Source: Candidatus Micrarchaeota archaeon (lineage in GTDB: Archaea > Micrarchaeota > Micrarchaeia > Norongarragalinales > WALN01). From it: a stretch of 35,117 bases of DNA. The stretch covers positions 1-35,117 of the forward strand of contig WALN01000064.1 of NCBI GenBank assembly GCA_015522865.1, given 5' to 3'. The position numbers and the translations under genes were made by a program. Within the stretch, counting starts at the first letter, position 1. The number at the start of each line of letters is the position of its first letter. The notes under the pieces are model-generated. The model was given only the letters and a program-made list of their open reading frames with translations. It did no database searches and was not told the origin of the DNA. This document shows, piece after piece, positions 2,212-35,117 of this stretch.

Positions 2212-3219
2212 TTAGAGTGTAATAAAAGCTATTGAAAAAATAGCAAATAAGATTTGAATTAGCCATAATGAATATACTATTTGTTTCTCATTTAAGTTGA
2301 AGTATTTCATTAGTACATGGGAAAGCGAATAAATTTTTCCGTTATATTTTAAATTTTTGTTCTTATCCAACCTCCCGAAATTTTCTGCTTGAAATTTACT
2401 TCTTGCCTTTAGAAAAAACTCGATAATTTGGGGCCCCATCAATATTATCGCTGCAACTTCTACATTTGCAATTATTGAAATAGTTCCTATTGCTCCTCCT
2501 ATTAAATATGTGAGCGAGTTACCGCCCAAAATTTTCGCTGGATACCAGTTATAAATTAAGAATCCCAAGCATACTGCAACAAGCGCGGTTGATAATAATG
2601 TTCCTATCTGGGAGCCAGCTATAAAGGAAATTAATGCCATAGTGATGCCCGCGATTATTCCAATACCTACTTCCAAACCATTAAACCCTGCCAGTAAATT
2701 AACTAAATTTGAGGAGGCAACTATCCAGAGCGGAATAAAAATTATTGAATATGCAACACCAAAATTTACTACGCCTAAAAACGGTATTAGAATCAATGTA
2801 GAATGAAAAACAGCAATGAGCGGAAGTGATGCAAACAGTGGAAGAAAAACTCTATAAATTTGCTTCATATGAACAAAATCCTCAACAATACCAATAGTTG
2901 CAATCAGAGTAATTGAAAGAATAGCTGCCAAGTAGTAAATTAGTTCTTCTTTTGCTATAAAACTCATAATAATTAAAGCCGTTACAAGAAGAGAGAAGGT
3001 CACTGCTATACCTCCTCCGTTCACCACTCTGTATTTAGCAAATTTTTCCGAATATTCTTCTTTCAGTTTCTTTATCTCTCTCAATGAGAGCTTTTGTGGA
3101 ACTTTGTTTAAATCCACTATGAAAAATTTTCTTTTTTCAAAAGCAGCCAAAACAGCAAAGGTTGAAAATAAAGAAAGTAAAAAAGCAAATAAAAAAATTC
3201 CACAAAGCACTAAACACAT
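2212..3219 (-). CDS. Second glycosyltransferase family 4 GlcNAc-1-P transferase paralog
   Basis: Has VEDF, NLVNLLAGFNGLEVG and WYPAKILGGN motifs parallel to the neighbouring paralog. Convergent with 1224-2204, with only 7 nt between the stops. Confidence 0.8.
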   Translation of the reverse strand: MCLVLCGIFLFAFLLSLFSTFAVLAAFEKRKFFIVDLNKVPQKLSLREIKKLKEEYSEKFAKYRVVNGGGIAVTFSLLVTALIIMSFIAKEELIYYLAAILSITLIATIGIVEDFVHMKQIYRVFLPLFASLPLIAVFHSTLILIPFLGVVNFGVAYSIIFIPLWIVASSNLVNLLAGFNGLEVGIGIIAGITMALISFIAGSQIGTLLSTALVAVCLGFLIYNWYPAKILGGNSLTYLIGGAIGTISIIANVEVAAIILMGPQIIEFFLKARSKFQAENFGRLDKNKNLKYNGKIYSLSHVLMKYFNLNEKQIVYSLWLIQILFAIFSIAFITL

Positions 3220-22727: not shown

Positions 22728-22848
22728 GTTTTATTTATAGTCCCGTAGTCTAGTGGCCAAGGATGACAGGCTTTGGACGAAGCTCTCTTTTTCTTGTAAG
22801 AAAAAGAGACCTTCAGGAGAGAAAAAGAACGGGTTGTAGAAGACCTTC

Positions 22849-22912
22849 AGGAGAGAAAAAGAACAAAAATGAAAGAAGAACTTCTTGATGCAGCTTCTTT
22901 CTAAGAAGCTGC
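22849..22912 (+). repeat. 64-nt intra-intron direct repeat, copy 1
   Basis: aggagagaaaaagaacaaaaatgaaagaagaacttcttgatgcaGcttctttctaagaagCtgc is 62/64 identical to 23027-23090. The shorter repeat gaccttcaggagagaaaaagaac also occurs at 22808-22830 and 22842-22864. Confidence 0.9.
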
Positions 22913-22960
22913 TTTGGAACATCTTAGTACTTTCTTTCTTCTTAAGAAAGAAAGGACCAG
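22912..22960 (+). repeat. 49-nt module shared with the tRNA-His downstream repeats
   Basis: ctttggaacatcttagtactttctttcttcttaagaaagaaaggaccag matches 34938-34986 and 35038-35086 at 47/49 positions. Confidence 0.9.
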
Positions 22961-22990
22961 CACCTCTCTTAAAAAGAGAGCTGCACCAGA

Positions 22991-23025
22991 GAACTTCTTG
23001 ATGCAACTTCTTTCTAAGAAGTTGC
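22991..23025 (+). repeat. Partial (35-nt) third copy of the hairpin part of the 64-nt repeat
   Basis: gaacttcttgatgcaacttctttctaagaagttgc is identical to 23056-23090. Confidence 0.9.
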
Positions 23026-23026
23026 T

Positions 23027-23090
23027 AGGAGAGAAAAAGAACAAAAATGAAAGAAGAACTTCTTGATGCAACTTCTTTCTAAGAAGTTGC
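23027..23090 (+). repeat. 64-nt intra-intron direct repeat, copy 2
   Basis: See copy 1. It differs only at 23071 (A versus G22893) and 23087 (T versus C22909), which are the two partners of one stem base pair. Confidence 0.9.
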
Positions 23091-23170
23091 GGAGAAACCT
23101 GTAGACGCCGGTTCGAATCCGGTCGGGACTATTTAAAGAATAATGGTGAAATAATATAGGTGAGATTGAA

Positions 23171-23359
23171 TTGGGCAGAGTAAAAGGAGTTATGATTAGA
23201 AAAACGGCTGAGGTCTTACTTAAGAAATTGGAGTTTTCTTCTGATTTCGATTACAACAAGAAGAAACTTAAAGAAGTACCCGGCCTTAATAGTAAACTAT
23301 TCAGAAATAAGATAGCTGGCTATATAAGCAAAAAACTGCATAATGAATCAAATGTTTAA
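23171..23359 (+). CDS. rps17e: Ribosomal protein S17e
   Basis: xGRVKGVMIRKTAEVLLKKL.. matches the S17e N-terminus. The first codon of the open frame is ATT, directly after an in-frame TGA at 23168-23170. GGTGA SD at 23160-23164. Confidence 0.8.
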   Translation: MGRVKGVMIRKTAEVLLKKLEFSSDFDYNKKKLKEVPGLNSKLFRNKIAGYISKKLHNESNV

Positions 23360-24837
23360 TACTGCCTGGCTACGTAGACTTTATATCTAGCTGGCTTTCC
23401 GCATATTATGCATTTTTCATTAGTTTTTTCTATTTTTGTTAAATTAGTTGAACTCGTGTTTGTGTCTGCAATTATTCCCCTTACTTTTGCTCTAGTTTTT
23501 TCCTGCAGCTCAGCAGCGCATTTTTCTCCCTCTTTTTCAATAGAGCAAAACGGCACTTTTGCTATGCCTTTGTTATCCAATATTTTTTCAACTTCTTCCA
23601 AGCTATGCGCTTCAATTATGTGCTCTGAAAAATATTTTTCTGCCCTTTTTTTCAACCTCAGGTCAAAAGAATTTAGTTCTCTTTTTATTGCTCCCACTAT
23701 CTCCTCTTCCTTTACTCTTATTTTCTCCTTGTTGTCTCTAAAGACTACGGTCATTTCCTTTTGCGCTACCTCTTTTTCTCCTATTTCTATTCTTATCGGC
23801 ACTCCCAGCATTTCCCATTTGTTGAATTTGAATCCGGGGGTTTTTTCTGAGCTGTCCACCTTAGCGGATATACTTTCCTTCTCCAGTAATTTTTCTGTTT
23901 TGGCGCATCTGCTTAAAACTTCTTTTTTGTTTTTTTCTTTAAAAATAGGTATAATTATTACTTTTAGTGATGCGACAGAAGAAGGTAAAATTAACCCCTT
24001 TTTATCTCCGTGAATACTCACTATTGCTGCAAGTATCCTCCATACGCCCGGCCCAAAACAGGTCTGATAGACATATTTTGCCTCTCCCTTTTTGCTTCTA
24101 TATTTTATATTGAACGGTTTTGAGAAGTTTTGGCCAAGCAGATGCGTGGTTGCAATTTGCAACACTTTTCCATCCGGCATCAGAATATCGTATGCAAATG
24201 TTTTCTCAGCGCCCGGGAAGGTGTCCCAATAGGGTCTTTGAAAAACTAAGAACGGAATTTGCAATTTATTTTTAAAAATTTTTTCAGTGATTTCCATATC
24301 TTTTTTAACTTGTTTGACCGCCTCCTCGCTGCTTGCAAAAACATCATGAGTCTCTATCCACAAAAACTCTTTGCCTCTTAAAAATGGTGCAGGTTCTTTC
24401 TCGTTTCGGAATACAGAGCAGGACTGAAAGAATTTGAAAGGCAGTTGAGACTCTTCTCTGAGCCAGAGCGAATACATTTTATAAAACGCAGTTTCGCTTG
24501 TTGGTCTCAGAAAAAGCTTTCTTTCCAATTTTTCACTGCCGGCTTCTGTAATCCAAAATACCTCCGGGATAAAACCTTCCAGATGTTCTTTTTCTTTTTC
24601 TAAATTCTCCTCTGGTATAACCGTGGGAAATAGAACTTGCTCATGAGCATCTTTTTTTAGCTCGCTCTCAAAAAATGCATATATTTTATTTAGGATGAAC
24701 ATCGCTCTTGGCTTGTGGACTATAAACCCTTTCACATTATATCTGTTGTCTGCCAAATCTGCCGCATAAATTATAGTGTTGTACCACTCTGAAAAATTTT
24801 TCTCTTTATCAATATCAAACTCTCTTTTTTCCATCAT
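23356..24837 (-). CDS. proS: Prolyl-tRNA synthetase, archaeal/eukaryal type
   Basis: FSEWYNTII.., class II motifs (FRNE.., TCFGPG), an anticodon-binding domain, and a C-terminal zinc-binding extension ending ..CIICGKPARYKVYVARQY. Confidence 0.95.
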   Translation of the reverse strand: MMEKREFDIDKEKNFSEWYNTIIYAADLADNRYNVKGFIVHKPRAMFILNKIYAFFESELKKDAHEQVLFPTVIPEENLEKEKEHLEGFIPEVFWITEAGSEKLERKLFLRPTSETAFYKMYSLWLREESQLPFKFFQSCSVFRNEKEPAPFLRGKEFLWIETHDVFASSEEAVKQVKKDMEITEKIFKNKLQIPFLVFQRPYWDTFPGAEKTFAYDILMPDGKVLQIATTHLLGQNFSKPFNIKYRSKKGEAKYVYQTCFGPGVWRILAAIVSIHGDKKGLILPSSVASLKVIIIPIFKEKNKKEVLSRCAKTEKLLEKESISAKVDSSEKTPGFKFNKWEMLGVPIRIEIGEKEVAQKEMTVVFRDNKEKIRVKEEEIVGAIKRELNSFDLRLKKRAEKYFSEHIIEAHSLEEVEKILDNKGIAKVPFCSIEKEGEKCAAELQEKTRAKVRGIIADTNTSSTNLTKIEKTNEKCIICGKPARYKVYVARQY

Positions 24838-24924
24838 GCATTAATATATGCTCCAATATTTAAAAAACTAGAGATGCCCTACTCTCTGCGAAATCTATAA
24901 ATTTGGCAAAGAACATAGACATTT

Positions 24925-25860
24925 ATGAAACTATTTGGGAAGAGGCGCGTAGAGCTAGAACAATTGAAAGGCCGAAGAACGCCGCAAAATATCGCGCTTA
25001 GAGCAGTGATGAGGAAATCTCCCGAAGTTGCAAAGAGATTTTTAGATGCGCTCAGTGAAAGCCAATATAAAAAATTTGAAAAACTTGGAACGCGCTATGT
25101 GAGATTTTTGGTCTACAAAAAAAGAGAGATTCCCCCAGAAGCGCTTAAAAATGTGCTTTACGGGAGGGAACTCTCAGATGAAGAGAAAGAAAGAATAAAG
25201 AAAGGATATGAATGGTATCTTACACATTTTACAAACAAATCCCCAGAAATTAGAAAAAGATTAGTCGAGGAGGCTATGGAACACACCAGATATTTTAGCG
25301 CCGCAGAGCCTTTTTTCTTCGGTCCTCATTCAGTTCCAAATATTCGACACAAAAAACTGGAAATTGAAAGGATAAAGAAATGGGGGTTATACCCCGACTA
25401 TGGCATGGTGCGGCGCAATATGTTTTATCAAACGGACGTTATATCTTTACACAAAATCCCATTCGAAGCCATTTCAGCTCATGAATTCTATCATTTTAGA
25501 GCCATGGGTCAAAATCTTAATTCTGAGATTACTGCCAACGCCATCACTACTTTTTTAGCGAGGAGAAGGCTGTTTTCTCCTTCGCTCAAAACAAAACTAA
25601 TTATAACTTTAAATCGCCTAAAAATTTTGAAAAATATTCCGTATAGCGCGCATAATGCTTTCCTCTATTTAGTAGGCCAAAAAGTGGGATATATAGCTCA
25701 AAAATTTGAAAGAAAAAAAGAGGGCCGGGGAGTAGCATTTATGAGATTTCTTGATAGAAAAATGAGAGAAAAGTTCAAAAGTGAAAAGGAAATTACGCCC
25801 GCAATTTTCGACAGTTTTCTAAAAAGCTCTCTAAGAGGATTTAAAAATACTGGCTCCTAA
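24925..25860 (+). CDS. Basic hypothetical protein with an HExxH motif (AHEFYHF)
   Basis: 311-aa ORF. The single HEFYH string is a possible zinc-metallopeptidase motif. I recognise no family. Confidence 0.5.
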   Translation: MKLFGKRRVELEQLKGRRTPQNIALRAVMRKSPEVAKRFLDALSESQYKKFEKLGTRYVRFLVYKKREIPPEALKNVLYGRELSDEEKERIKKGYEWYLTHFTNKSPEIRKRLVEEAMEHTRYFSAAEPFFFGPHSVPNIRHKKLEIERIKKWGLYPDYGMVRRNMFYQTDVISLHKIPFEAISAHEFYHFRAMGQNLNSEITANAITTFLARRRLFSPSLKTKLIITLNRLKILKNIPYSAHNAFLYLVGQKVGYIAQKFERKKEGRGVAFMRFLDRKMREKFKSEKEITPAIFDSFLKSSLRGFKNTGS

Positions 25861-25888
25861 TCGTTATGTTTGCTGTCGGTGTAGTTAT

Positions 25889-26103
25889 ATGAAAGTAGTG
25901 ATTATTGGAGCCAGTCCGGCACTCTTCTTTATGCCCCCGAGATCAAATTCCACGCAATAGAAGTATCGGTAAATGCTGACATGCAGACGCCTGTGAAGGG
26001 ACTCTATGCAATAGGAGATGGGGCAAGAGTTTCTCGCGGTATTGTTACTGCCGCAGCAAGCGGCTTGTTAGCTGCCCAGTCCATTAACTCCGAAAAATAT
26101 TAA
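25889..26103 (+). pseudogene. Remnant of an FAD-dependent dehydrogenase: N-terminal dinucleotide-binding stub fused out of frame to the C-terminal ~50 codons
   Basis: Frame 1 reads MKVVIIGASPALFF.. then stops at 25958-25960. A shifted frame reads ..APEIKFHAIEVSVNADMQTPVKGLYAIGDGARVSRGIVTAAASGLLAAQSINSEKY-stop (26101-26103), typical of the C-terminal FAD-binding GD motif region. Confidence 0.5.
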
Positions 26104-26133
26104 TAAGTAATTTACCATTATATTACTGATACC

Positions 26134-26991
26134 ATGTTTAGACCTCAAGAGCACATAAAATTGGTAAAATCAGAAATGAGAGCTAATGAACAGTTGCGCA
26201 ATATTCTTAAGAAGCATAAAGAAGACTTAGTTTTGGGGCGATTTAATATAGAGAGCGCTTATCCCAAAGCTAACCTGCCCGAAAGAAAAAGTTTGGCAGG
26301 TAGGCTTAAGTACAATTTTGTGGTTCACCTGAGGAAATTGAGGAATCGAGACCTGAGAGAGCTATTTGAAAAAGTTGGAGACCTGAAAAAAATGAACAAA
26401 ATTGCAAGAAAAAAATTAGTGCCTTTAATTAAAAAAGAAGGAAAGGAATATCTCCGGTCCAGGAAGGAAAAAATCAAGACTCAAAACTTCAAGCAAGCTT
26501 TAGACGAGATAGAAAATATTAAAAAAGAAAATAAGAAGGCGGTTGAAGATAAAATAAAAGAGTTGGAGGAGCGCAATAAATATTTAAACCAATATCTATC
26601 TCATCTAACCTCTATTTCTATTACTTCCTCTGGCGGAGCTTCTTTTGAAGATGTTTTAGGCAATCTAAAAAATAAGAATAAACAATTACTTCGTGAATTA
26701 GAGAAACATAAGAGCAAGGTAGATTCTCTTAAAGAGGCGCTTAATGCGGCCGAAGCGGATGCGCGCTCTGCAAAGAAAGAAAGGGAAAAGTTGTTAAAAG
26801 AAAGAGAGAAGCTAAATAAACAAATATTGCAGCATCAAAAAAGGGTAGAGGAGCTTGCTCACCAACTCAACGTCTTGTTGAAGCTGGCCCCCCAGAAAGA
26901 GCTTAAAAAAAGAATAATTAACAAAGAGCTGCTACCACTGCTTAAAAATATAGAGAAGGCGAAGGCAAAACCGCCGAAACGCAAAAAATAA
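26134..26991 (+). CDS. Lys/Glu-rich coiled-coil protein (hypothetical)
   Basis: 285 aa with heptad-like charged repeats and a basic tail KAKAKPPKRKK. Confidence 0.5.
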   Translation: MFRPQEHIKLVKSEMRANEQLRNILKKHKEDLVLGRFNIESAYPKANLPERKSLAGRLKYNFVVHLRKLRNRDLRELFEKVGDLKKMNKIARKKLVPLIKKEGKEYLRSRKEKIKTQNFKQALDEIENIKKENKKAVEDKIKELEERNKYLNQYLSHLTSISITSSGGASFEDVLGNLKNKNKQLLRELEKHKSKVDSLKEALNAAEADARSAKKEREKLLKEREKLNKQILQHQKRVEELAHQLNVLLKLAPQKELKKRIINKELLPLLKNIEKAKAKPPKRKK

Positions 26992-27267
26992 CTACTTCAT
27001 ATATACCGGCATACATTCCTCTGCTTGGCATTTACAGCCTGCGATGTTATATTCTTTTCTACAATCTGTGTTGCACGTTTTATTCTCAACATCTTCTGGT
27101 CTCTGTCCTTTGGTGTAGCATTTACAGTCGCATAAGCTCAAAGAACAATTTTTGAAAGAAGTGCATTTGTTGGCATTTGTTTTGCCAGCGGGATATTCTA
27201 TAATTATTGCAATAATTGATATTAGTACTATCACTCCTATAATTATACCTATCAAATATTTTTTCAT
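26992..27267 (-). CDS. Small membrane-anchored cysteine-rich protein (10 Cys in about 60 extracytoplasmic residues)
   Basis: N-terminal TM LIGIIIGVIVLISIIAIII, then CTSFKNCSLSLCDCKCY...CNTDC...CKCQAEEC. ATGA overlap with the ileS stop. Confidence 0.5.
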   Translation of the reverse strand: MKKYLIGIIIGVIVLISIIAIIIEYPAGKTNANKCTSFKNCSLSLCDCKCYTKGQRPEDVENKTCNTDCRKEYNIAGCKCQAEECMPVYMK

Positions 27268-30263
27268 TTGCTCACTCTGCTAAAGCGCGCATTTATCTCG
27301 ACATTCTCAAATTTTGCGTTTGCTTCAACTTCTCCGTTAAGTATGCCTATATCTATTTTTTCTGCCCCAACAGTTTTAGCAATTTCTTCCTTCCTTCTCT
27401 CAAAAAGTTCCTGAATTTTTTCGTTTGACCTTAAAGTTAAATTTATTTTCTCCTGTACTTTAAATCCATTTTTCTTCCTTGCCTCTTGGATTGCTCGGGT
27501 AGTTTCTTTTATTATTGCTTCTTCTTCGCATTCCTTATCCAGCTGATTGTCTATAAATATCGTGCCCCCTTCAAATTCTGCTTTGGTAAATTTTTCCTCG
27601 TCTACCTGCTCTTTAACAATTTCGACTTTTTTAACATTCGCGAGTTTTCTTATAGTATCTTCCACTTCCTCTAAGGGGCGTTCTTCCACTTCATTTAATT
27701 TTATTATTGCTCTTGGTATTGGCCATCTCAACCTTAATTTAGCCTTCTGCCTTGCGCTCATAATAGCTTCTATTATTTTTGCCGCCCTCTCCATTTTTTC
27801 TTCTAATTCTAAATCTATTAACGTATCATCCGCTTCTGGATACAGTTCAAAATGTATCGATTCTAAATTCAAATTATTGTCTATCTCCTTAAGTTTGCTG
27901 TAAATATATTCTGAGATAAATGGAGTTATAGGGGCGAGTAGTTTAGCAGTTGAAAGCAAACAATAATTAATCGTATTAATACATTTGCTTTTGCTTTCAT
28001 CTTTTGAGTGTATATCCATTCTGTCTCTTACTAATTTAATGTATGTTCTCGAAAATTTATCATTTACAAATTTTATTATTTCTCTGCCTGCTTTATGAAA
28101 TTCGAAATTCTCTAAATGCTTTGTAACTTTTTTAGTCAGCGAATTATTTGCTGAAATTATCCATCTGTCCTCTACCGGATACTCTTTCATATTTTCTATT
28201 CCTTCTGGTTTGATTTCTCCCCTGTAGTTTGTATAAAATTCCAAAATATTAAGCAAAATATTTAAAGATTTTTTAACTTCTTTTGCCCTTGAGAAACTAA
28301 ATCTCTGCACTTCAGATGGCGGGACCTCAAAAGAGAAGTAGAGGCGTATAGTGTCTGCTCCTAGCTTTTCTATTCCTTCCAATGCACTTATTACATTTCC
28401 TCTGCTCTTGCTCATTTTTTCCCCATTTTCATCAACAACCCACCCCATCATTGCAACATTTTTATATGAAGGGATATCAAAGGTAGCTATACCGTAGAAC
28501 ATTAGAGCATAGAACCATCCTCTTATCTGGTCCTGCGACTCGTTTATTAAATCAACTGGAAATAATTTTTCGAACAGCTCCTTATTTTTATATGGGTATC
28601 CCATAGATGCCCACGGAGAAATGCCGGAATCAAACCACACATTGAAAATGTCTTTTACTCTATGCATTGTCCCTCCACATTCATCGCATTTGAGTTCTAT
28701 TTTGTCTATGTTGTGCCTATGCAGGTCGTTAATATCTTTTGGAGCGTTAATTGCTTTTTTTAGCAGCTCTTCCTTGCTACCAATTACTTCTGTTTTACCG
28801 CACTTGTCGCAGACCCATATAGGCATGGGAATGCCCCAATACCTCTGCTGCGATATACACCAATCTCCAGAACCCTCAAGCCAGTTCGCAAACATCTCTC
28901 TCCCGGACTCAGGCATCCAGTTGACTTTTTTGTTTGCTTCGATCATTTTTTGCTTTATCGGCTCAATCGAAAAATACCATTGTTTGCTCATCCTAAATAT
29001 TAATTTGCTCTTGCATCTCCAACATAAAGGATAGCTGTGTACTATTGTCTCTTCTCTCAATAACTTATTCTCCTTTTTAAGCAATTCTATTATCTCTTTA
29101 TCTGCATCCTTAACAAATACTCCTTCAAATCGCTTCACTTTCTCAGTGAATCTTCCTTTTTCATCAACTGGCGATACAGCAGGCAGGCCGTAGTGTTGGC
29201 CAACTAAATAGTCAGTTGCCCCATGTCCCGGTGCACAGTGCACTATCCCGCTTCCCTCATCCATAGTTACGAACTCTTCAAATTCTTCTTTTCCTTCTTC
29301 GCTCTCCTTCATTTTGTGTTTTTTATACTGTTTTTTCTTCATTATTGAGATGCTTAAATAGATTTTATGGGCTTTTTCTCCGAGCTCTTTTTGCTGTTCT
29401 ACATCTAAGAGAGGCTCGTATTCCATTCCATCCAATTCTACTCCCTTAAACTTTTTTACTATTTTATATTTCGTATCTTTGAGTACTTCTGGCACTCTCT
29501 TTGCTCCAAGTATATAATATTCTTCGCCCACTTTCACTTTTACATACTCTTCCTTTGGATGAACAAAAAGAGCTACATTTGCAGGCAGGGTCCATGGCGT
29601 TGTAGTCCAGACTATAAAATAAGTTTTTTCTTCTCCTTTCACTTTAAATTTTACAAATACGCTAGGATCTTCTACATCTGTATAGCTATCGCTTACTTCA
29701 TAGCCACTTAACGCTGTTTCGCAGTGAGGGCACCAATATATTGGCTTTTCACCTGCATACAGCATAGATTTTTCATGCAATTTCTTCGCAGTCCACCAAC
29801 CACTTTCAATGTAGTAGTCCTTATATGTAAGATAAGGAGCAAAGAAGCCCCTCCACGCCCCGAGTTTTTTGTAGTATCCCAGCCACGCGCTCTCATTATT
29901 TCTTACTTTCTCAAGGCATTTCTTGTCGAACTCTTCTATACCTATTTTTTCTTCTATATCTGATTTTGAAGTAATGCCTAACTCCTTTTCAACTGCTACT
30001 TCTACTGGCAGGCCGTGGCAGTCAAAACCGGGTTGTATAAATGTGCTGTATCCCTGCATATATTTGAAGCGCGTCCAGATGTCCTTGTATGTTGTTGTTT
30101 TTACATGCCCTACGTGGGGGGTTCCATTCACATATGGCGGGCCATCTAGCAGAAAAAATTTTTTCTTCCCCTTTCTCCTCTCTTCCAGCTTTCCCGCTAT
30201 ATCCTCTTTCATCCAGTACTCTAAAACTTCTTTTTCTATCTTTTTTGGGTCGTAGTATACCAT
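27264..30263 (-). CDS. ileS: Isoleucyl-tRNA synthetase
   Basis: Class I HIGH (PHVGH) and KMSKS motifs, a CP1 editing domain, and Cys-pair zinc motifs (CWRCKS, CDKCG, CDECGG). Confidence 0.95.
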   Translation of the reverse strand: MVYYDPKKIEKEVLEYWMKEDIAGKLEERRKGKKKFFLLDGPPYVNGTPHVGHVKTTTYKDIWTRFKYMQGYSTFIQPGFDCHGLPVEVAVEKELGITSKSDIEEKIGIEEFDKKCLEKVRNNESAWLGYYKKLGAWRGFFAPYLTYKDYYIESGWWTAKKLHEKSMLYAGEKPIYWCPHCETALSGYEVSDSYTDVEDPSVFVKFKVKGEEKTYFIVWTTTPWTLPANVALFVHPKEEYVKVKVGEEYYILGAKRVPEVLKDTKYKIVKKFKGVELDGMEYEPLLDVEQQKELGEKAHKIYLSISIMKKKQYKKHKMKESEEGKEEFEEFVTMDEGSGIVHCAPGHGATDYLVGQHYGLPAVSPVDEKGRFTEKVKRFEGVFVKDADKEIIELLKKENKLLREETIVHSYPLCWRCKSKLIFRMSKQWYFSIEPIKQKMIEANKKVNWMPESGREMFANWLEGSGDWCISQQRYWGIPMPIWVCDKCGKTEVIGSKEELLKKAINAPKDINDLHRHNIDKIELKCDECGGTMHRVKDIFNVWFDSGISPWASMGYPYKNKELFEKLFPVDLINESQDQIRGWFYALMFYGIATFDIPSYKNVAMMGWVVDENGEKMSKSRGNVISALEGIEKLGADTIRLYFSFEVPPSEVQRFSFSRAKEVKKSLNILLNILEFYTNYRGEIKPEGIENMKEYPVEDRWIISANNSLTKKVTKHLENFEFHKAGREIIKFVNDKFSRTYIKLVRDRMDIHSKDESKSKCINTINYCLLSTAKLLAPITPFISEYIYSKLKEIDNNLNLESIHFELYPEADDTLIDLELEEKMERAAKIIEAIMSARQKAKLRLRWPIPRAIIKLNEVEERPLEEVEDTIRKLANVKKVEIVKEQVDEEKFTKAEFEGGTIFIDNQLDKECEEEAIIKETTRAIQEARKKNGFKVQEKINLTLRSNEKIQELFERRKEEIAKTVGAEKIDIGILNGEVEANAKFENVEINARFSRVSK

Positions 30264-30311
30264 GGCTTTATTTATCTCTTAAAATTTAAAATGTTTGCTT
30301 CTGCACTTTCT

Positions 30312-31595
30312 TTAAATTTGCCTTTTTTGTGATTTTAAATACTCTATTATGCTGTCTAAGCTTAACATTTTTTCTTCGCCGGTTTTCATATTCTTCAATT
30401 TTAACTTGTTTTCTTCGATCTCTTTTTTTCCCATAATTGCTACGTACGGGATGTCTCTCTTTGATGCATAGTCTAAATTTTTTGAGATCCCCCTGTCCAT
30501 TAAATCGATGTCCGCATTTATTTCTTCACTTCTCAACTTTTCGGTTACTTCTAGTGCTGTGTTAAATGTTTTGATGGGTATTACGAAAACTTTTATTTTC
30601 GTTTTCTTTTTGTATTTTCCTCCAAGCGCTTCGCATATTCTTTCAGTTCCAAAACTTATTCCGACTGCGGGATATTCTCCCCTACCAATAAATTTCCCAA
30701 TCATTCGATTATATCTTCCGCCAGATGCTACTGCTGTTTTTACCTCAGAATTTTTCAAAAAAGTTTCAAAAATTGTCGAAGTGTAATAGCTCAGCCCTCT
30801 TGCAAGGGATAAGTCAATTTTTATATTTTTCAACGACAATATTTTTACAAAACTCAGCAAATTTTCCAGCTCCGTCACCCCCTCCTTTCCTTCGTCATTT
30901 AAATTCAACTTTTTCAGCTTCTGTAAAATTTCATCGTTTTCTCCGACAATTTCAAATAAAGAAAATAATTTTTCAATTACTTTTTTCGGAACTTCTTTAT
31001 TTTTCAGCTCGTCTTCAACCTCCTTTTTGCCGATTTTTTCGAGTTTGTCTATTGAGAGAATCACACTTTCTGCTTTCTCGTTTTCTACGCCCGCGTATTT
31101 TACAAGCCCATTGAGTAGTTTTCTGTTGTTAAGTTTTATTTCAAACTCCAAACCTATTCTCTTGAACACCTCGAACGTAAGCGCCAGTATCTCTGCTTCT
31201 GCTTTCATACTTTTTACTCCAATAATGTCTGCATCGCATTGCGTGAACTCTCTTAATCTGGTTGAGGAAACCGGTCCGTCTCTCCACGCTTCGCCAATCT
31301 GGTAACGCTTGAACGGCAATTTTAAATTCGGATTTTCTTTGATATAACGAGCAAGCGGAACAGTCAGGTCATATCTCAGGCCCAATTTTCTTCTTCCCTG
31401 GTCCTCTAATTTATATGTTTCTTTCAGAATTTCTTCGCCGCCCCCATATTTCGACGCAAGTGTTTCCCACTTTTCCAGAGCAGGCGTTTTAATTGGAACA
31501 TACCCGTATTTCTCAAAAATATTTTTTATAATTTTGATTAGCTCTTGCCTCTGAAATTCTTCCTCTGGCCCGTAGTCTCTGAATCCTTTCAACAT
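30312..31595 (-). CDS. hisS: Histidyl-tRNA synthetase
   Basis: MLKGFRDY.., LRYDLTVPLARY, FKRYQIGEAWRDG, GGRY and GISFG motifs. Start set at the first ATG; the track start at 31607 is a TTG. Confidence 0.9.
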   Translation of the reverse strand: MLKGFRDYGPEEEFQRQELIKIIKNIFEKYGYVPIKTPALEKWETLASKYGGGEEILKETYKLEDQGRRKLGLRYDLTVPLARYIKENPNLKLPFKRYQIGEAWRDGPVSSTRLREFTQCDADIIGVKSMKAEAEILALTFEVFKRIGLEFEIKLNNRKLLNGLVKYAGVENEKAESVILSIDKLEKIGKKEVEDELKNKEVPKKVIEKLFSLFEIVGENDEILQKLKKLNLNDEGKEGVTELENLLSFVKILSLKNIKIDLSLARGLSYYTSTIFETFLKNSEVKTAVASGGRYNRMIGKFIGRGEYPAVGISFGTERICEALGGKYKKKTKIKVFVIPIKTFNTALEVTEKLRSEEINADIDLMDRGISKNLDYASKRDIPYVAIMGKKEIEENKLKLKNMKTGEEKMLSLDSIIEYLKSQKRQI

Positions 31596-31712
31596 GTTAC
31601 CACACAAATTATGAATTAGTTATTTAAATAATTGATTAGGCAACTAATAATTTCCCTGTTTATATTTTGTGCAGCGCAGTTAATTATTTAACTAAAATTT
31701 AAGTAATGGAAT

Positions 31713-33185
31713 TTGGGGGATACTATCAAATATATTTATGTAGCAGGGCAGCGCAAAACGTTAATTGCCACTTTTCTGAAAAAGGGTACCTTTACGGCTT
31801 CGTATGCCTACTTCAACAACAACGTCGAACCAAATTTCATAATTTTTAGGCACAATTTAAATGCAGAGTACTGGGTGCCGGAATCTGAGGTGCTCAGGAT
31901 GAACAAATTCGGAGAAAAATACTTGGGCCGTCGGTTTACTGAGAGCATATTAAATAAAGTTAAGCTGAATGTTAATGCTGCATGGAAGATGGTGGAAAAA
32001 TTAAATAGGCTTGAATTTTCTGCGCTATCTAACGCAAAGCTTATTGAGTTATTTTCCCAAATAAATTCAATACTTTTGCAGCTGATGGGCGATTTATTTT
32101 TATCGCAGGATTTTTATACTAAAGCAGTGGAGGAGCGGCTCATCTCTTTGCTCTCGTCCAAATTCAAAGACAGGAAAAAAGTTGATTATTATCTAGGAAT
32201 TTTACTTAAAGATTATGATTTGGATGCAATCCAACGCGAAGAGATAGATTGGTATAATTATGTGCTGAACCACAAAAATATAAAACGTGAGGAACTGATG
32301 AGTTATGTTTTGCGCAATGGATGGATGATTTATAATGCATTTGATTATGAAACTGCGTACAATTTTATATTGGAGAGATATAGAAAGACTGAAAATATGG
32401 GCGAGAAAGAAATTCAAAAGAGAATTAAAAATATTCTGCTCAATAAACAAAAAGCCAGAGAAGAATTTAATGCTCAAAGCGAAAAACTTACCCCCAAAAT
32501 GCTTGAGTTAGCTACCATCTTGCGGGATTTAGCTAAGAACAGGCTCGAAGTGAAATTGGCTACGAATTCCTTAGAAGTCGCTCTAAACCTCAAATTATTG
32601 TATTTCCTTTCCAAAAAATTTAACTTAAATTTCTGTGATTTGTTGGATGGATATTTGCCTGGAGATATAAGGAAGTTGTTGGAAAGTGGCTTTCGTGTTT
32701 CTGGTGATAAAATTAAGAGACGGAAGGAGTTCGTCTCGTTTGTTCAAATTAACGGAAAATTTGATGTTGCGAGCGGTAATGACGCTATGAATAAAATTGA
32801 TAATTTATTAAGTAGTTCGAGACCAAAGAAAGAGCAGAAAGTGCTGAAAGGTAATGTTGCTTCTATTGGCAGTCCCTCAGTTGTAACTGCTACCGCAAGG
32901 ATAATACGTTTGGGAAATGATTCCGAGTTGAGAGAAGACATAAACAGATTTCAAAAAGGCGAAATAATCGTTACTATTATGACTCAGCCCAATATGGTCC
33001 CAATAATGAAAAAAGCTGCAGCGGTTATTACTGACGAAGGAGGCATATGCAGCCACGCAGCTATTATTTCCAGAGAATTTAACATCCCATGTATAGTAGG
33101 AACAAGGGCAGCAACAAAAATTATAAAAAATGGCGACAAAGTCACAATAGACACTTCAGAAGGAATTGTCAGAATTATAAAATAG
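31713..33185 (+). CDS. PEP-utilizer swivel (phosphohistidine) domain protein with an uncharacterised ~390-aa helical N-terminal region
   Basis: The C-terminal ~100 aa read ..GEIIVTIMTQPNMVPIMKKAAAVITDEGGICSHAAIISREFNIPCIVGT.., the PEP-utilizing enzyme mobile domain with the catalytic His. No ATP-grasp (PPDK_N) domain or PEP/pyruvate TIM barrel is visible. TTG start. Confidence 0.7.
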   Translation: MGDTIKYIYVAGQRKTLIATFLKKGTFTASYAYFNNNVEPNFIIFRHNLNAEYWVPESEVLRMNKFGEKYLGRRFTESILNKVKLNVNAAWKMVEKLNRLEFSALSNAKLIELFSQINSILLQLMGDLFLSQDFYTKAVEERLISLLSSKFKDRKKVDYYLGILLKDYDLDAIQREEIDWYNYVLNHKNIKREELMSYVLRNGWMIYNAFDYETAYNFILERYRKTENMGEKEIQKRIKNILLNKQKAREEFNAQSEKLTPKMLELATILRDLAKNRLEVKLATNSLEVALNLKLLYFLSKKFNLNFCDLLDGYLPGDIRKLLESGFRVSGDKIKRRKEFVSFVQINGKFDVASGNDAMNKIDNLLSSSRPKKEQKVLKGNVASIGSPSVVTATARIIRLGNDSELREDINRFQKGEIIVTIMTQPNMVPIMKKAAAVITDEGGICSHAAIISREFNIPCIVGTRAATKIIKNGDKVTIDTSEGIVRIIK

Positions 33186-33191
33186 TTTCAG

Positions 33192-34700
33192 TCACCTGCT
33201 TTTTATAATTCTTACAACGCCATTATTTGCATCCACCTCTACAAATTTTCCGTCTTTCAAAATTGATGTTGCTATTTTTGTTCCCATAACGCACGGTATG
33301 CCCAAAGCCTTTGAAATTAATGCGGCGTGGCAGGTAACCCCATTTAAATCAGTTACAATTGCTGACGCTTTCATCATAGCGGGCAATATATTTGGGTCTG
33401 TTTGGTAGGCTACAAGTATATCGCCTTTTTTCATTTTTTTCATTTCTTTAGGGTCTTCTATTATTTTCGCTACTCCCCTTACTTTGCCCGGATATGCACA
33501 CAGTCCACTTAAAAATTTCGTTTTTCTTTTTTTCTCTTTTTTTATGTTTATTTTCTCCATGAATTTTCTTGCTTTTTTTCCAGTCAGCCATTTTTCTCCC
33601 TTTTGGGTAAAATCTCCAACAGTGTATTTGAGCCTTTCATTAAGCTCTTTCCTTGAAAATTTTCTTTTGAGTATCGCATCCCTCATCTCGAATGGGCTGA
33701 TCACGCGCATCTGCTCCAAATTCAGCCCGGCTCTTTTTCCCATTTCTCTAAGAAGAGATTCTGTTGCATAATATCCATAGAACATTGCATCTTTTCTGAA
33801 AGCTTTTATTGAAATTATTTTTCTTGCCTGTTCAAAAAGCAACTGATGTTTCTTGTCTATGCCAATTGTTCTTGTGTAGTGTTCCTGCATTTTCTTAATT
33901 CTCAAAGGAGTCCGTTCCATTTTTTTGACCATTTTTTGTACGTCTATATCCTGAGAAATTAAATCTACCAGTCGCTCAATAATCATCTTTTTGTTCCAAG
34001 CAGGGCCTTTGTATTCATATCCTATCCAACCAAATTTTTCCACATGCTCTTCGATTTCCTTTCCGGCTATCCTGTTTATTCTTTTTTCAATCTCTTTTTT
34101 TGTCCTTTTGTCTCTAATTGTATTTTTGAGTTTGTTGGCAATCTTCAAAATATTTTGTTCTTCTTTTCTTTCAATACTTTCTTCTGTGGGCGTACTTAGT
34201 ATTGCGTATACTTCCTCTACTCCATATTTTAATCCCTTCCTTTTTATCTGCTGCGAAAGGTATTTTTTGAGATGAGTAGATAATAGATGATCCTTAATTT
34301 CTATAATGAACGGAACGATTCCCGGCAGTATTGCTTCCTGATTAGCTTTCCAGAACCTTTCATATAATTTTATGAGCTTTTCATCAGAGTATTGTGGCAT
34401 ATTCATTTTATAAATCGCTCTAGAAACCTTAAATAAATTTTTAGCATTTTTGAAATGTATTTTATGTAATTTATCGAACCATGCAAGATTATTTAACATT
34501 TTTCTAAAAGCATATTTTTCTTTGCTCTCGAATTCTTTTTTATCTAGAAAATAATTCGAGTTTCCCTTTTTTATTTCTATTATAAACTCTCTGAACAAAG
34601 GTATGCTTACTATGTTTAGCCTGCGGGTGAAAAGATACGCAGAATAGGCATGCATAAAAACTTCTCTTCTAACTTTTAATATCGCAATCCATTCTTTCAT
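33192..34700 (-). CDS. Paralogous PEP-utilizer swivel domain protein
   Basis: C-terminal ..GDILVAYQTDPNILPAMMKASAIVTDLNGVTCHAALISKALGIPCVMGT... The N-terminal region is collinear with 31713-33185 (for example YSDEKLIKLY versus LSNAKLIELF, and FGWIGYEY versus NGWMIYNAF). Confidence 0.7.
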   Translation of the reverse strand: MKEWIAILKVRREVFMHAYSAYLFTRRLNIVSIPLFREFIIEIKKGNSNYFLDKKEFESKEKYAFRKMLNNLAWFDKLHKIHFKNAKNLFKVSRAIYKMNMPQYSDEKLIKLYERFWKANQEAILPGIVPFIIEIKDHLLSTHLKKYLSQQIKRKGLKYGVEEVYAILSTPTEESIERKEEQNILKIANKLKNTIRDKRTKKEIEKRINRIAGKEIEEHVEKFGWIGYEYKGPAWNKKMIIERLVDLISQDIDVQKMVKKMERTPLRIKKMQEHYTRTIGIDKKHQLLFEQARKIISIKAFRKDAMFYGYYATESLLREMGKRAGLNLEQMRVISPFEMRDAILKRKFSRKELNERLKYTVGDFTQKGEKWLTGKKARKFMEKINIKKEKKRKTKFLSGLCAYPGKVRGVAKIIEDPKEMKKMKKGDILVAYQTDPNILPAMMKASAIVTDLNGVTCHAALISKALGIPCVMGTKIATSILKDGKFVEVDANNGVVRIIKSR

Positions 34701-34783: not shown

Positions 34784-34906
34784 GGCGGCGATGGTGCAGT
34801 GGTTAACATCTCGGACTGTGGATCCGAGGACCCGAGAAGCCTTTCTTTCTGAAGAAAGAAATCCTTGGGAAAGAAAGACAAGGGAATTCGAGTCTCGGTC
34901 GCCGCC
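34784..34906 (+). tRNA. tRNA-His (anticodon GTG at 34818-34820) with encoded G-1 and a 50-nt intron in the T-arm (between positions 53 and 54); CCA not encoded
   Basis: Eight-bp acceptor including G-1:C73 (GGCGGCGA / TCGCCGCC), T8, A14, anticodon stem TCGGA/TCCGA, loop CTGTGGA. The T-stem CCGAG (34832-34836) is separated from T-loop TTCGAGT plus CTCGG (34887-34898) by 34837-34886. Confidence 0.75.
34837..34886 (+). other. Non-canonical tRNA-His intron (position 53/54)
   Basis: aagcctttctttctgaagaaagaaatccttgggaaagaaagacaagggaa contains a CTTTCTTTC/GAAAGAAAG-type hairpin (34842-34861) of the same family as in the 49-nt module. Confidence 0.7.
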
Positions 34907-34937
34907 CTTAGCTCTCATTCTATTCTTAGCATTCTTT

Positions 34938-34986
34938 CTTTGGAACAACTTAGTACTTTCTTTCTTTTTAAGAAAGAAAGGACCAG
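34938..34986 (+). repeat. 49-nt shared module, His repeat unit 1
   Basis: ctttggaacaacttagtactttctttctttttaagaaagaaaggaccag is 47/49 identical to 22912-22960. Contains an 11-bp hairpin at 34956-34980. Confidence 0.9.
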
Positions 34987-35037
34987 TTCGAGTCTCGGTC
35001 GCCGCCCTTAGCTCTCATTCTATTCTTAGCATTCTTT

Positions 35038-35086
35038 CTTTGGAACAACTTAGTACTTTCTTTCTTTTTAAGAAAGAAAGGACCAG
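35038..35086 (+). repeat. 49-nt shared module, His repeat unit 2
   Basis: Identical to 34938-34986. Confidence 0.9.
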
Positions 35087-35117
35087 TTCGAGTCTCGGTC
35101 GCCGCCCTTAGCTCTCA

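Follow-up and report, generated by a model that had tools for sequence, protein, structure and literature searches.

Contig WALN01000064.1 of Candidatus Micrarchaeota archaeon (assembly GCA_015522865.1) carries genes for tRNA-Gln and tRNA-His that are both interrupted by introns, and it raises the question of why the intron of the first gene and a series of repeat units directly downstream from the second share a hairpin-forming sequence of 49 nucleotides. The contig was analysed over its entire length of 35,117 nt, referred to here as the window. An earlier note on this DNA had proposed that the shared sequence, termed the module below, belongs to an element that spreads among tRNA genes, or else is a common processing or recognition signal. 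Our results lead to a more specific proposal, that the module is probably the exon-proximal, terminal part of a propagating family of tRNA introns of the bulge-helix-bulge (BHB) type in Micrarchaeota-like and Diapherotrites-like lineages of the DPANN archaea, which would spread between tRNA genes and between genomes at the DNA level.

The origin and movement of archaeal tRNA introns are unresolved, and their transposition has so far been inferred from sequence similarity, with no defined cis-element or mechanism known. The module provides a handle on this problem. It is recognisable and polar, it abuts splice junctions, and introns from at least four tRNA species, spread over several lineages of DPANN archaea, share it; moreover, empty, filled and replaced versions are all available at one orthologous tRNA-Cys locus.

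The module and its occurrence in the window

A pattern search of both strands for the 49-mer yielded exactly three matches, all on the plus strand, at 22912-22960 (no mismatches), 34938-34986 and 35038-35086 (two mismatches each). None was found on the minus strand of the window and none in 100 dinucleotide-preserving shuffles. The identity of 47/49 between the tRNA-Gln intron and the tRNA-His repeat units, and the placing of one of the two differences in the hairpin loop, both of which had been reported in the earlier note, were confirmed: the changes are T/A at module position 11, in a linker, and C/T at position 30, in the loop. The further claim that the module occurs nowhere else in the window also held in a profile search and a hairpin scan, and all hairpins of at least 10 bp with a pyrimidine arm and a purine arm lie within the tRNA-Gln and tRNA-His loci. 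The 50-nt His intron, previously considered to be a relative, proved to be a degenerate, antisense copy (profile E ~0.01) with the same plan of two hairpins; a Y/R hairpin begins 4 nt past the 5' splice site and is followed by a CCTTG/CAAGG hairpin with a purine tract in its loop.

The 49-mer is real, but it forms only the core of a longer conserved unit, which measures about 55-62 nt and of which the Gln intron holds an internal copy truncated at its 5' end. When the copies are aligned in one orientation, the unit consists of a pyrimidine tract Y1 (e.g. TTCTTTCTTT), a linker (GG NNN CAAC TTAG YA), a hairpin formed by a second pyrimidine tract Y2 (CTTTCTTTCTT), a loop and a purine tract R (AAGAAAGAAAG), and finally a tail (G R C CAG). 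Across genomes, both the unpaired linker (GG..CAACTTAG.AC) and the CCAG tail have been kept. The Y2/R hairpin comprises 11-14 bp and carries a conserved A.G mismatch three pairs from the base of its stem. In the antisense-type introns, those of tRNA-Cys and the 50-nt His intron, the tract equivalent to Y1 lies in the loop of a second hairpin whose stem covaries (CCCAA/TTGGG, CCTAAA/TTTGGG, GCCC/GGGC and CCTTG/CAAGG).

Occurrence in other genomes

Strict degenerate patterns, for which exact matches were required, were used to search 185,579 species genomes, the metagenome contigs of JGI and viral contigs. The Micrarchaeota metagenome-assembled genome (MAG) JAHJUD01 was the only species genome among the matches listed, at least nine metagenome contigs matched, and no viral contig matched the strict pattern. 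All of the full matches listed, with both linker and CCAG tail, lie inside the introns of tRNA genes, namely tRNA-Asp(GUC) in JAHJUD01 and tRNA-Cys(GCA) in contigs L010/L013 and L012, and the confinement to tRNA loci seen in the window extends to this wider search. Pattern matches in L008, L009, L011 and L015 lack the linker and CCAG tail, lie after or inside open reading frames (ORFs), and were treated as chance matches or other hairpins; at 1225-1345 of L008, a contig of 56% GC, two similar Y/R hairpins (GTACTTTTCTTTC GGGT GAAAGAAAAGTAC; GTTCCTTTCTTTTCCGAAAAGAAAGGAAC) follow an ORF and are not in a tRNA.

The tRNA-Asp intron, of 141 nt, carries a sense module that ends 2 nt before the 3' exon and an antisense copy, detected with an nhmmer profile (E 6e-6), that begins 1-4 nt past the 5' exon. 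The inverted modules pair along their length, and the predicted fold of the intron is a single long stem (-45.6 kcal/mol, z -4.9). The tRNA-Cys modules of L010/L013 and L012 run antisense to the tRNA, and they begin exactly at the 5' splice site (CAG/CTGG..., where the slash marks the junction). The CCAG end faces the exon in 7/7 junction-adjacent copies, in either orientation (p = 0.008).

The hosts carry the names of different DPANN groups. ProRS of the window is at most 57% identical to any homologue and its named neighbours are Micrarchaeota, while the best named relatives of the L10e protein of L010 are Diapherotrites (67-73%). Nevertheless, the module of the window His locus and that of the L010 Cys intron are 93% identical, which equals the identity between the L010 and L012 modules (93%) and exceeds that between L010 and L020 (77%). 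A synteny comparison through ProRS was of no help: the closest homologues are only 57% identical, and the single locus that was checked proved not to be syntenic.

Fragments of tRNA genes were seen close to several of these copies. On the minus strand of L007 (JAHJUD010000024.1), 16 nt of the tRNA-Asp 5' exon are duplicated (GCCCTGGTAGTCTAGC, 277-262) some 50 nt upstream from the real gene, and this partial duplicate is followed by a small hairpin and then by its own reverse complement (TAGACTACCAG, 240-221); together with the tRNA-His array described below, this is the second case of tRNA-end fragments beside module-bearing genes. At 3610-3749 of L006 and 13411-13533 of L016, the same module and tRNA-Asp 3' exon are followed by different downstream sequences, reflecting either strain variation or a second stand-alone copy of module plus 3' exon, as at the His locus. 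In the 3' part of the L012 intron (~2975-3000, plus-strand coordinates), AGCCGATCGGAAGC is directly followed by GGCT/AGCCGAAG and resembles the beginning of the 3' exon of tRNA-Cys; it is a partial exon duplication within the intron.

Turnover and constraint at the tRNA-Cys locus

The tRNA-Cys gene adjoining a gene for a THUMP-domain protein provides an orthologous site that could be traced through relatives. It is intron-less in L018, an empty site, and carries the module in L010, L012, L020, where the tracts have changed to period 5, and L028. L021, the closest relative of L010, has an unrelated 87-nt intron and L032 a mosaic one. No target-site duplication was found when filled and empty Cys sites were compared. 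The mosaic intron, of 149 nt (L032 52-275, minus strand), is of the L021 type in its 5' part and module-like in its 3' part (GCCC AGAAGAAAAA GGG, CCC TTTCTTTTCTTT GGG), a pattern that points to recombination of modules between different types of intron. In L028 (2631-2852, minus strand), where the THUMP protein is 38% identical, the Y/R hairpin is kept 3 nt past the 5' splice site; the intron also keeps, ~100 nt further on, a tract composed of GGTTGCCC + AAAGAAAAGAAA, and three unrelated hairpins are inserted between the Y/R hairpin and this tract.

The same locus reveals marked constraint. The exons of L010 and L012 are identical and the first 62 nt of their introns, which constitute the module, match at 57 positions (57/62). 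Outside the module there are two large indels in the rest of the intron, the flanks are unalignable and the adjacent gene is 68% identical at the nucleotide level. Two of the substitutions within the module give G.U pairs on the transcribed strand only. This conservation above that of the flanks, together with the strand-specific G.U pairs, indicates that the module is not neutral filler and that it either works in the pre-tRNA or has been homogenised against other copies.

A probable propagating intron family

A propagating family appears to us the probable explanation because all the full matches listed lie in tRNA genes and the module occurs in both orientations and at two intron positions, turns over at the tRNA-Cys site and reaches 93% identity across hosts. 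The two positions are 37/38 (Gln, Asp and Cys) and 53/54 (His, with the degenerate copy plus flanking copies). Similar sequences are found in different isoacceptors and at different positions, as in a shared intron family, although the similarity lies in the module and not in the whole intron, and gain or loss between close relatives is seen at the orthologous tRNA-Cys site.

Members of the family would be tolerated because the tRNA splicing endonuclease removes the introns. A complete member, as in tRNA-Asp, would carry inverted terminal copies that pair in the RNA and generate a long inner helix joining the splice sites. One-copy members would be represented by tRNA-Cys and the 50-nt His intron, both with the copy at the 5' end, and the 320-nt Gln intron by a composite of duplicated hairpin units with one truncated internal module. 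The array downstream from tRNA-His would be a tandem duplication of 3' exon, trailer and module and is probably non-functional. Its module was probably copied recently within the genome, because the His and Gln copies match at 47/49 whereas the variant at the same locus of ENA scaffold_1718, from the same population, is only 84% identical to the window His copy.

Several points weigh against this explanation. The distribution is as expected for the element envisaged in the earlier note, with different tRNAs, both orientations and presence or absence at one site, but it is from this distribution that we infer mobility and its DNA-level mechanism, and no mechanism or enzyme was seen: there was no transposase, integrase, homing endonuclease or reverse transcriptase near any copy, nor were there target-site duplications. 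Splicing of the module-bearing introns is likewise deduced from their predicted geometry. Host taxonomy reflects the names of database neighbours and is not a phylogeny, and the restriction to tRNA genes rests on at least ~9 independent copies from exact pattern scans and not on a whole-genome census. Finally, the module is far better conserved than the flanks and the neighbouring gene in L010/L012, and it persists in L028 at a THUMP identity of 38%, which points to vertical inheritance under selection, whereby high identity could be maintained without transfer.

The last point leads to an alternative that we consider unlikely but worth weighing, namely that the module is a vertically inherited, non-mobile cis-element of the pre-tRNA, a folding scaffold that closes the BHB and is ancient in several tRNAs. 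Such a scaffold could supply a helix next to the 5' bulge or dock the distal tract onto the hairpin, and the 5' cleavage site and the start of the module hairpin are in fact 2-5 nt apart in the introns of tRNA-Cys, tRNA-Asp and tRNA-His. The strong purifying conservation in tRNA-Cys between lineages with unalignable flanks, the architecture retained in L028, the two substitutions yielding G.U pairs and the covarying stem of the second hairpin are all in accord with it. It accounts poorly for the sporadic distribution, with one match listed among the 185,579 species genomes, and for sister lineages that are intron-less or carry an unrelated intron at the same site. Nor would it predict both orientations and two intron positions, an internal and truncated Gln copy, His copies outside any spliceable intron, or identity between differently named DPANN groups as high as that within a clade. 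For these reasons the propagating family is preferred.

The tandem array at the tRNA-His locus

The region 34887-35117 was resolved by Tandem Repeats Finder (TRF) into a 100-nt unit present in 2.3 copies, 100% identical and running to the contig end, each unit consisting of a 3' exon (20 nt), a 31-nt trailer and the module. Within module copy 2, Y1 extends over 34932-34941, the linker over 34942-34955, Y2 over 34956-34966, the loop over 34967-34969 and R over 34970-34980, with the tail reaching 34986. The unit count is a lower bound; the window ends inside the array, and the contig of GCA_027007975.1, which carries the same tandem units, breaks off only a few bases away from that point. The population is represented at the Gln and His loci by four further contigs, which are 99.8-100% identical. 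One of these, ENA scaffold_1718, carries tRNA-His, an identical trailer, a diverged module and a diverged copy of the 3' exon (AATTCAAATCTCGGTCGCCGCCC), followed by housekeeping genes. The identity of its module is 84% with the His copy of the window and 77% with the Gln copy, compared with a background of 99.8%, and because this diverged version is present, the junction between module and tRNA-His 3' end is real.

The extra 3'-exon copies were considered as alternative exons and rejected as such: of the four pairs of a central helix, they form none with the 5' exon, and the diverged copy of the ENA scaffold forms two. Given this absence of a BHB central helix, they are probably duplication products and unspliceable.

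Partial 3' tRNA duplications beside an intact gene are the classic footprint of archaeal integrases. The tRNA-His repeats fit this footprint and might be att-site remnants of an integrative plasmid or virus, with the module as part of an attP arm, a scenario that we judge quite improbable. It could accommodate the divergent 3'-exon copy of ENA scaffold_1718 and the partial 5'-exon duplicate upstream of tRNA-Asp in L007, and a published model ties mobile-element integration to tRNA fragments and intron gain (Sugahara 2012). However, no integrase or cargo was found, neighbouring ORFs being housekeeping genes or lacking a domain match; the copies lie 80 nt apart and are then followed by housekeeping genes (ThyX, SHMT), the viral-contig scan was empty, and the presence of the module at splice junctions in the Gln, Asp and Cys introns would be left unexplained. 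Hairpin ends of the IS200/IS605 type were also rejected; these share strand and orientation whereas module copies are inverted, and there is no tnpA or tnpB nearby.

A generic low-complexity hairpin, either a terminator or a palindrome derived from (CTTT)n, that came to lie near tRNAs by chance is very improbable indeed. A T5 run occurs in the loops at the His locus, 31 nt past the tRNA, the hairpins of L008 are similar, and the 57-nt module folds alone with a z-score of only -2, all as one would expect of such a sequence. Against it stand the conserved linker and CCAG tail, for which no chance match is expected, the splice-junction sites with their fixed polarity, and the fact that intronic copies must be transcribed through. 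Termination in particular was discounted in that T5 runs also occur inside the Gln and Asp introns and do not separate intronic from extragenic copies.

An assembly artefact, whether a chimeric join, which had been a concern earlier, or a de Bruijn-graph loop that created the repeat units, is scarcely credible: the identical units do run to the contig end and several assemblies do break here, but the Gln context recurs in ENA scaffold_1718 and the His units in GCA_027007975.1, both within the same population at 99.8-100% identity, a diverged junction of module and 3' exon is present in the ENA scaffold, and unrelated genomes show the module abutting tRNA exons.

Complementarity between three tracts

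An alignment of the copies with MAFFT misplaced run-length indels and, for this reason, the tract blocks were scored directly. In each of the eight complete copies, Y1 complements R in the parallel register, with T opposite A and C opposite G in the same 5'-3' direction. The match spans the whole of Y1 (9-12 nt) in six of the eight, and in the other two only one or two flanking C's are left out (Cys_10, 10/11; Cys_20, 12/13). Measured as distal/proximal lengths, the T blocks in Y1 and the A blocks in R show six states, 2/3, 2/4, 4/3, 5/3, 5/4 and 1/3, all of which agree, whereas the antiparallel expectation of a Watson-Crick or direct-repeat relationship fails for 6/6 states; 1/720 permutations reproduces the match. 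Y1 follows R even where R has an extra A in the loop, unpaired with Y2 (the Asp sense copy and Cys of L020).

Pyrimidine-motif intramolecular triplexes are known from the mirror repeats of H-DNA and from U.A-U RNA triplexes, for example in the ENE elements of MALAT1 and PAN. The module has the sequence features of such a triplex, a third tract that is the parallel complement and a linker connecting it, and the complement strand of the module fits the purine-motif triplex code. As the tract lengths co-vary three ways, being inserted or changed together in all three tracts, we tentatively raise the possibility that the module is a natural single-stranded triplex-forming element, in which Y1, Y2 and R would form a Y·R:Y helix of 9-12 triples, and that this fold, and not a simple hairpin, is the selected feature. 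The triples would be U.A-U and C+.G-C in sense RNA or single-stranded DNA, with the antisense strand following the purine-motif code. Such a structure might compact the intron around the splice sites or be recognised during propagation of the family. If this interpretation is true, the three-tract co-variation represents an unusual natural nucleic-acid motif.

As an alternative, Y1 and R can always pair in a Watson-Crick helix of 7-11 bp, which could close the intron and does so in the predicted fold of the His intron. This helix, however, leaves the mirrored length changes unexplained.

Other structural assignments were tried and rejected. The module has a layout resembling a nested mini-intron, with a CTTT/AAAG central helix and GGA and GAC bulges, and an outer helix (GCTG/CAGC) is present in the Gln copy but not in the His copy; the idea was abandoned because the BHB-like arrangement is not conserved between the two. 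A guide RNA of the C/D-box, H/ACA or K-turn type was excluded on the grounds that the module has no boxes and its single A.G mismatch is not a tandem sheared pair, and Rfam scans at E up to 1 gave miRNA- or sRNA-type matches only, far below gathering scores, and no C/D-box family. C/D box sRNAs are recognised by a C box (RUGAUGA), a D box (CUGA) and a K-turn; an intron-encoded one of the tRNA-Trp type was rejected, the UGAUGC of the Gln D1 repeat having no D-box partner.

Splicing context

The spliced Gln(ttg), His(gtg), Asp(gtc) and Cys(gca) sequences were all recognised by ARAGORN as canonical tRNAs. The BHB geometry was assumed from that of canonical 37/38 introns, with cleavage after the second nucleotide of each 3-nt bulge and a central helix of 4 bp. 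On this basis, an outer helix of 5-6 bp, 3-nt bulges and three or four of the four central pairs are formed in the Gln, Asp and both Cys introns, whose inner helix is weak or absent; for Gln, the outer helix comprises 5 bp, the central helix 4 bp (CTTT/GGAG), and there is no inner helix. The BHB of the His 53/54 intron is weaker, with a 2-bp outer helix and 3/4 central pairs. Two 3-nt bulges and the accompanying outer and central helices are found in the host introns, and the extra His units do not show this structure. The Gln, Asp and Cys introns are of the relaxed helix-bulge-helix (hBH) type, and the host introns are presumably spliced. In Micrarchaeum, an epsilon2 endonuclease cleaves relaxed BHB/hBH motifs that have no inner helix, and the tRNAs of Micrarchaeum/ARMAN-2 are heavily disrupted, with introns also at 53/54 (PMC3239211).

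Genomic context and detection of the tRNA genes

The features of the two loci are listed in Table 1.

Table 1. Features of the tRNA-Gln and tRNA-His loci in the window
Feature	Position	Strand	Evidence or remark
tRNA-Gln(UUG) 5' exon, positions 1-37	22739..22776	+	splicing, ARAGORN
tRNA-Gln intron, 320 nt, position 37/38	22777..23096	+	splicing, folding
D1, 64-nt direct repeat x3, bracketing module copy 1	22849..23090	+	
Module copy 1, sense, intron-internal, without upstream Y1	22912..22960	+	pattern and profile search
tRNA-Gln 3' exon, positions 38-73	23097..23131	+	ARAGORN on spliced sequence
tRNA-His(GUG) 5' exon, including encoded G-1	34784..34836	+	Rfam, ARAGORN
tRNA-His intron, 50 nt, position 53/54 (T-loop)	34837..34886	+	splicing, profile search
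tRNA-His 3' exon, positions 54-73, first member of tandem array	34887..34906	+	
Trailer between 3' exon and extended module, two CTTAGC motifs	34907..34931, again 35007-35031	+	
Module copy 2, extended	34932..34986	+	abuts next 3'-exon copy
Extra copy of tRNA-His 3' exon	34987..35006	+	TRF
Module copy 3, extended, identical to copy 2	35032..35086	+	
Third 3'-exon copy (35087-35106) and start of trailer, to contig end	35087..35117	+	

Joining the two Gln exons gives a tRNA-Gln(ttg) that is accepted by ARAGORN. The module copy of the Gln intron is preceded by 135 nt of intron sequence and followed by 136 nt, with Y2 at 22930-22940, the loop at 22941-22943, R at 22944-22954 and the tail, GGACCAG, extending to 22960. 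The intron contains six hairpins with pyrimidine and purine arms as well as internal repeats (minimum free energy -135.6 kcal/mol, z -6.4). The D1 repeats lie at 22849-22912, 22962-23025 (64% identical) and 23027-23090 (97%) and, because the module copy that the three of them bracket is truncated and internal, the intron looks like a composite built through local duplication. In ENA scaffold_1718 the same intron is present from 22798 (window numbering) on, and the surroundings of its module are the same.

D1 holds a C-box-like UGAUGC and has a Y-linker-Y-loop-R layout of its own (CTTCTT GATGCAA CTTCTT TCT AAGAAG), and it may represent a second, smaller type of module. The start of the module, CTTTGGA (22912-22918), is identical to C32-A38 of the tRNA-Gln anticodon loop (22771-22777), such that a 7-nt direct repeat flanks the first 135 nt of the intron. 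It may reflect microhomology or a coincidence, the latter because CTTTGG belongs to every module copy.

The genes of the window are ordinary chromosomal ones, for glycolysis, SMC, ProRS, IleRS and HisRS among others, and no integrase, transposase or splicing endonuclease (EndA) gene was found among them. Genes for ProRS, IleRS and HisRS are clustered at 23356-31607, between the two intron-bearing tRNA genes, with HisRS located 3 kb from tRNA-His. Two convergent paralogous ORFs of 490 and 502 aa occupy 31713-33185 (+) and 33192-34700 (-); in Pfam they matched only a short C-terminal PEP-utilizers mobile domain and their large N-terminal parts had no match.

ARAGORN without its intron option found no tRNAs in the window, and Rfam at the gathering score found tRNA-His only (34785-34906, which gives tRNA-His(gtg) when 34837-34886 is removed); both genes were recovered by manual splicing. 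The contigs of five assemblies end inside the introns or repeat units, at positions corresponding to 22798, 23072 and 35117 of the window, at the ends of L006 and L007 and at position 1 of L023, as is typical of repeated sequence, and on this account MAGs of these lineages probably contain too few of the intron-bearing tRNA genes, or truncated forms of them. Both genes were missed by standard tRNA finders, and assemblies break at such introns, with consequences for the tRNA complements of DPANN archaea and for estimates of completeness.

Comparison with known systems

The tracts of the module resemble those of H-DNA and ENE triplexes, in which one strand likewise combines a purine tract with two pyrimidine tracts, one its Watson-Crick partner and the other its parallel complement. 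They differ in that half of the module copies are transcribed antisense, with purine-purine-pyrimidine tracts, and the triplex of the module is putative. To our knowledge, stable RNA triplexes of the purine-purine-pyrimidine sense are not established, and we know of no triplex element in tRNA introns.

Miniature inverted-repeat transposable elements (MITEs) and foldback elements are, like the module, short, non-coding and rich in hairpins, they break assemblies, and one member of the family bears terminal inverted repeats. MITEs are defined by terminal inverted repeats, target-site duplications and dispersed copies; in contrast, the module shows inverted terminal copies in the Asp intron only, no target-site duplications and no copies outside tRNA genes among those seen, and it ends at RNA splice sites.

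In the split and tri-split tRNAs of Nanoarchaeum equitans and Caldivirga maquilingensis, long complementary sequences flank the BHB, much as the inverted modules do in tRNA-Asp, and stand-alone 3' pieces occur (PMC4090602). The exons of the module-bearing tRNAs are, however, contiguous on one transcript, and the extra His 3' pieces have no visible promoter or complementarity to the 5' exon. The tRNA fragments of Caldiarchaeum subterraneum (PMC3293823) are comparable to the His locus in showing a partial copy beside an intact intron-containing gene and introns that vary within the population. They differ from it in that the His locus has no recombinase-bearing insert and its copies, 100 nt apart, form a perfect tandem. 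Closer to the present hosts, the disrupted tRNAs of ARMAN-2, a member of a related group, carry introns at 37/38 and in the T-loop (53/54 and 59/60) with relaxed hBH motifs; those introns are short (13-25 nt) and no shared module was reported there (PMC3239211).

The claim of the earlier note that no such archaeal family has been described stands for the module itself, for which no description was found in Rfam or the paper library searched, but not for the phenomenon. In the Thermoproteales, near-identical introns occur in different tRNA genes and have been attributed to intron transposition (Fujishima et al. 2010, Mol Biol Evol 27:2233, as presented in PMC4090602 and PMC3239211). According to these accounts, intron gain there is, as proposed here, inferred to be recent and to occur at the DNA level, and no mobility enzyme is known. 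In comparison with the system as outlined in those two papers, the module family resides in DPANN hosts and not in Crenarchaeota, its introns are much longer (74-320 nt), and the shared part is a terminal module and not the whole intron. The module is present in both orientations with a fixed polarity to the exon, with inverted terminal copies in one intron; its similarity extends across differently named DPANN groups, and it displays three-tract complementarity. The best reading of the sequences is that the DPANN module represents a variant of the tRNA intron transposition known from the Thermoproteales.

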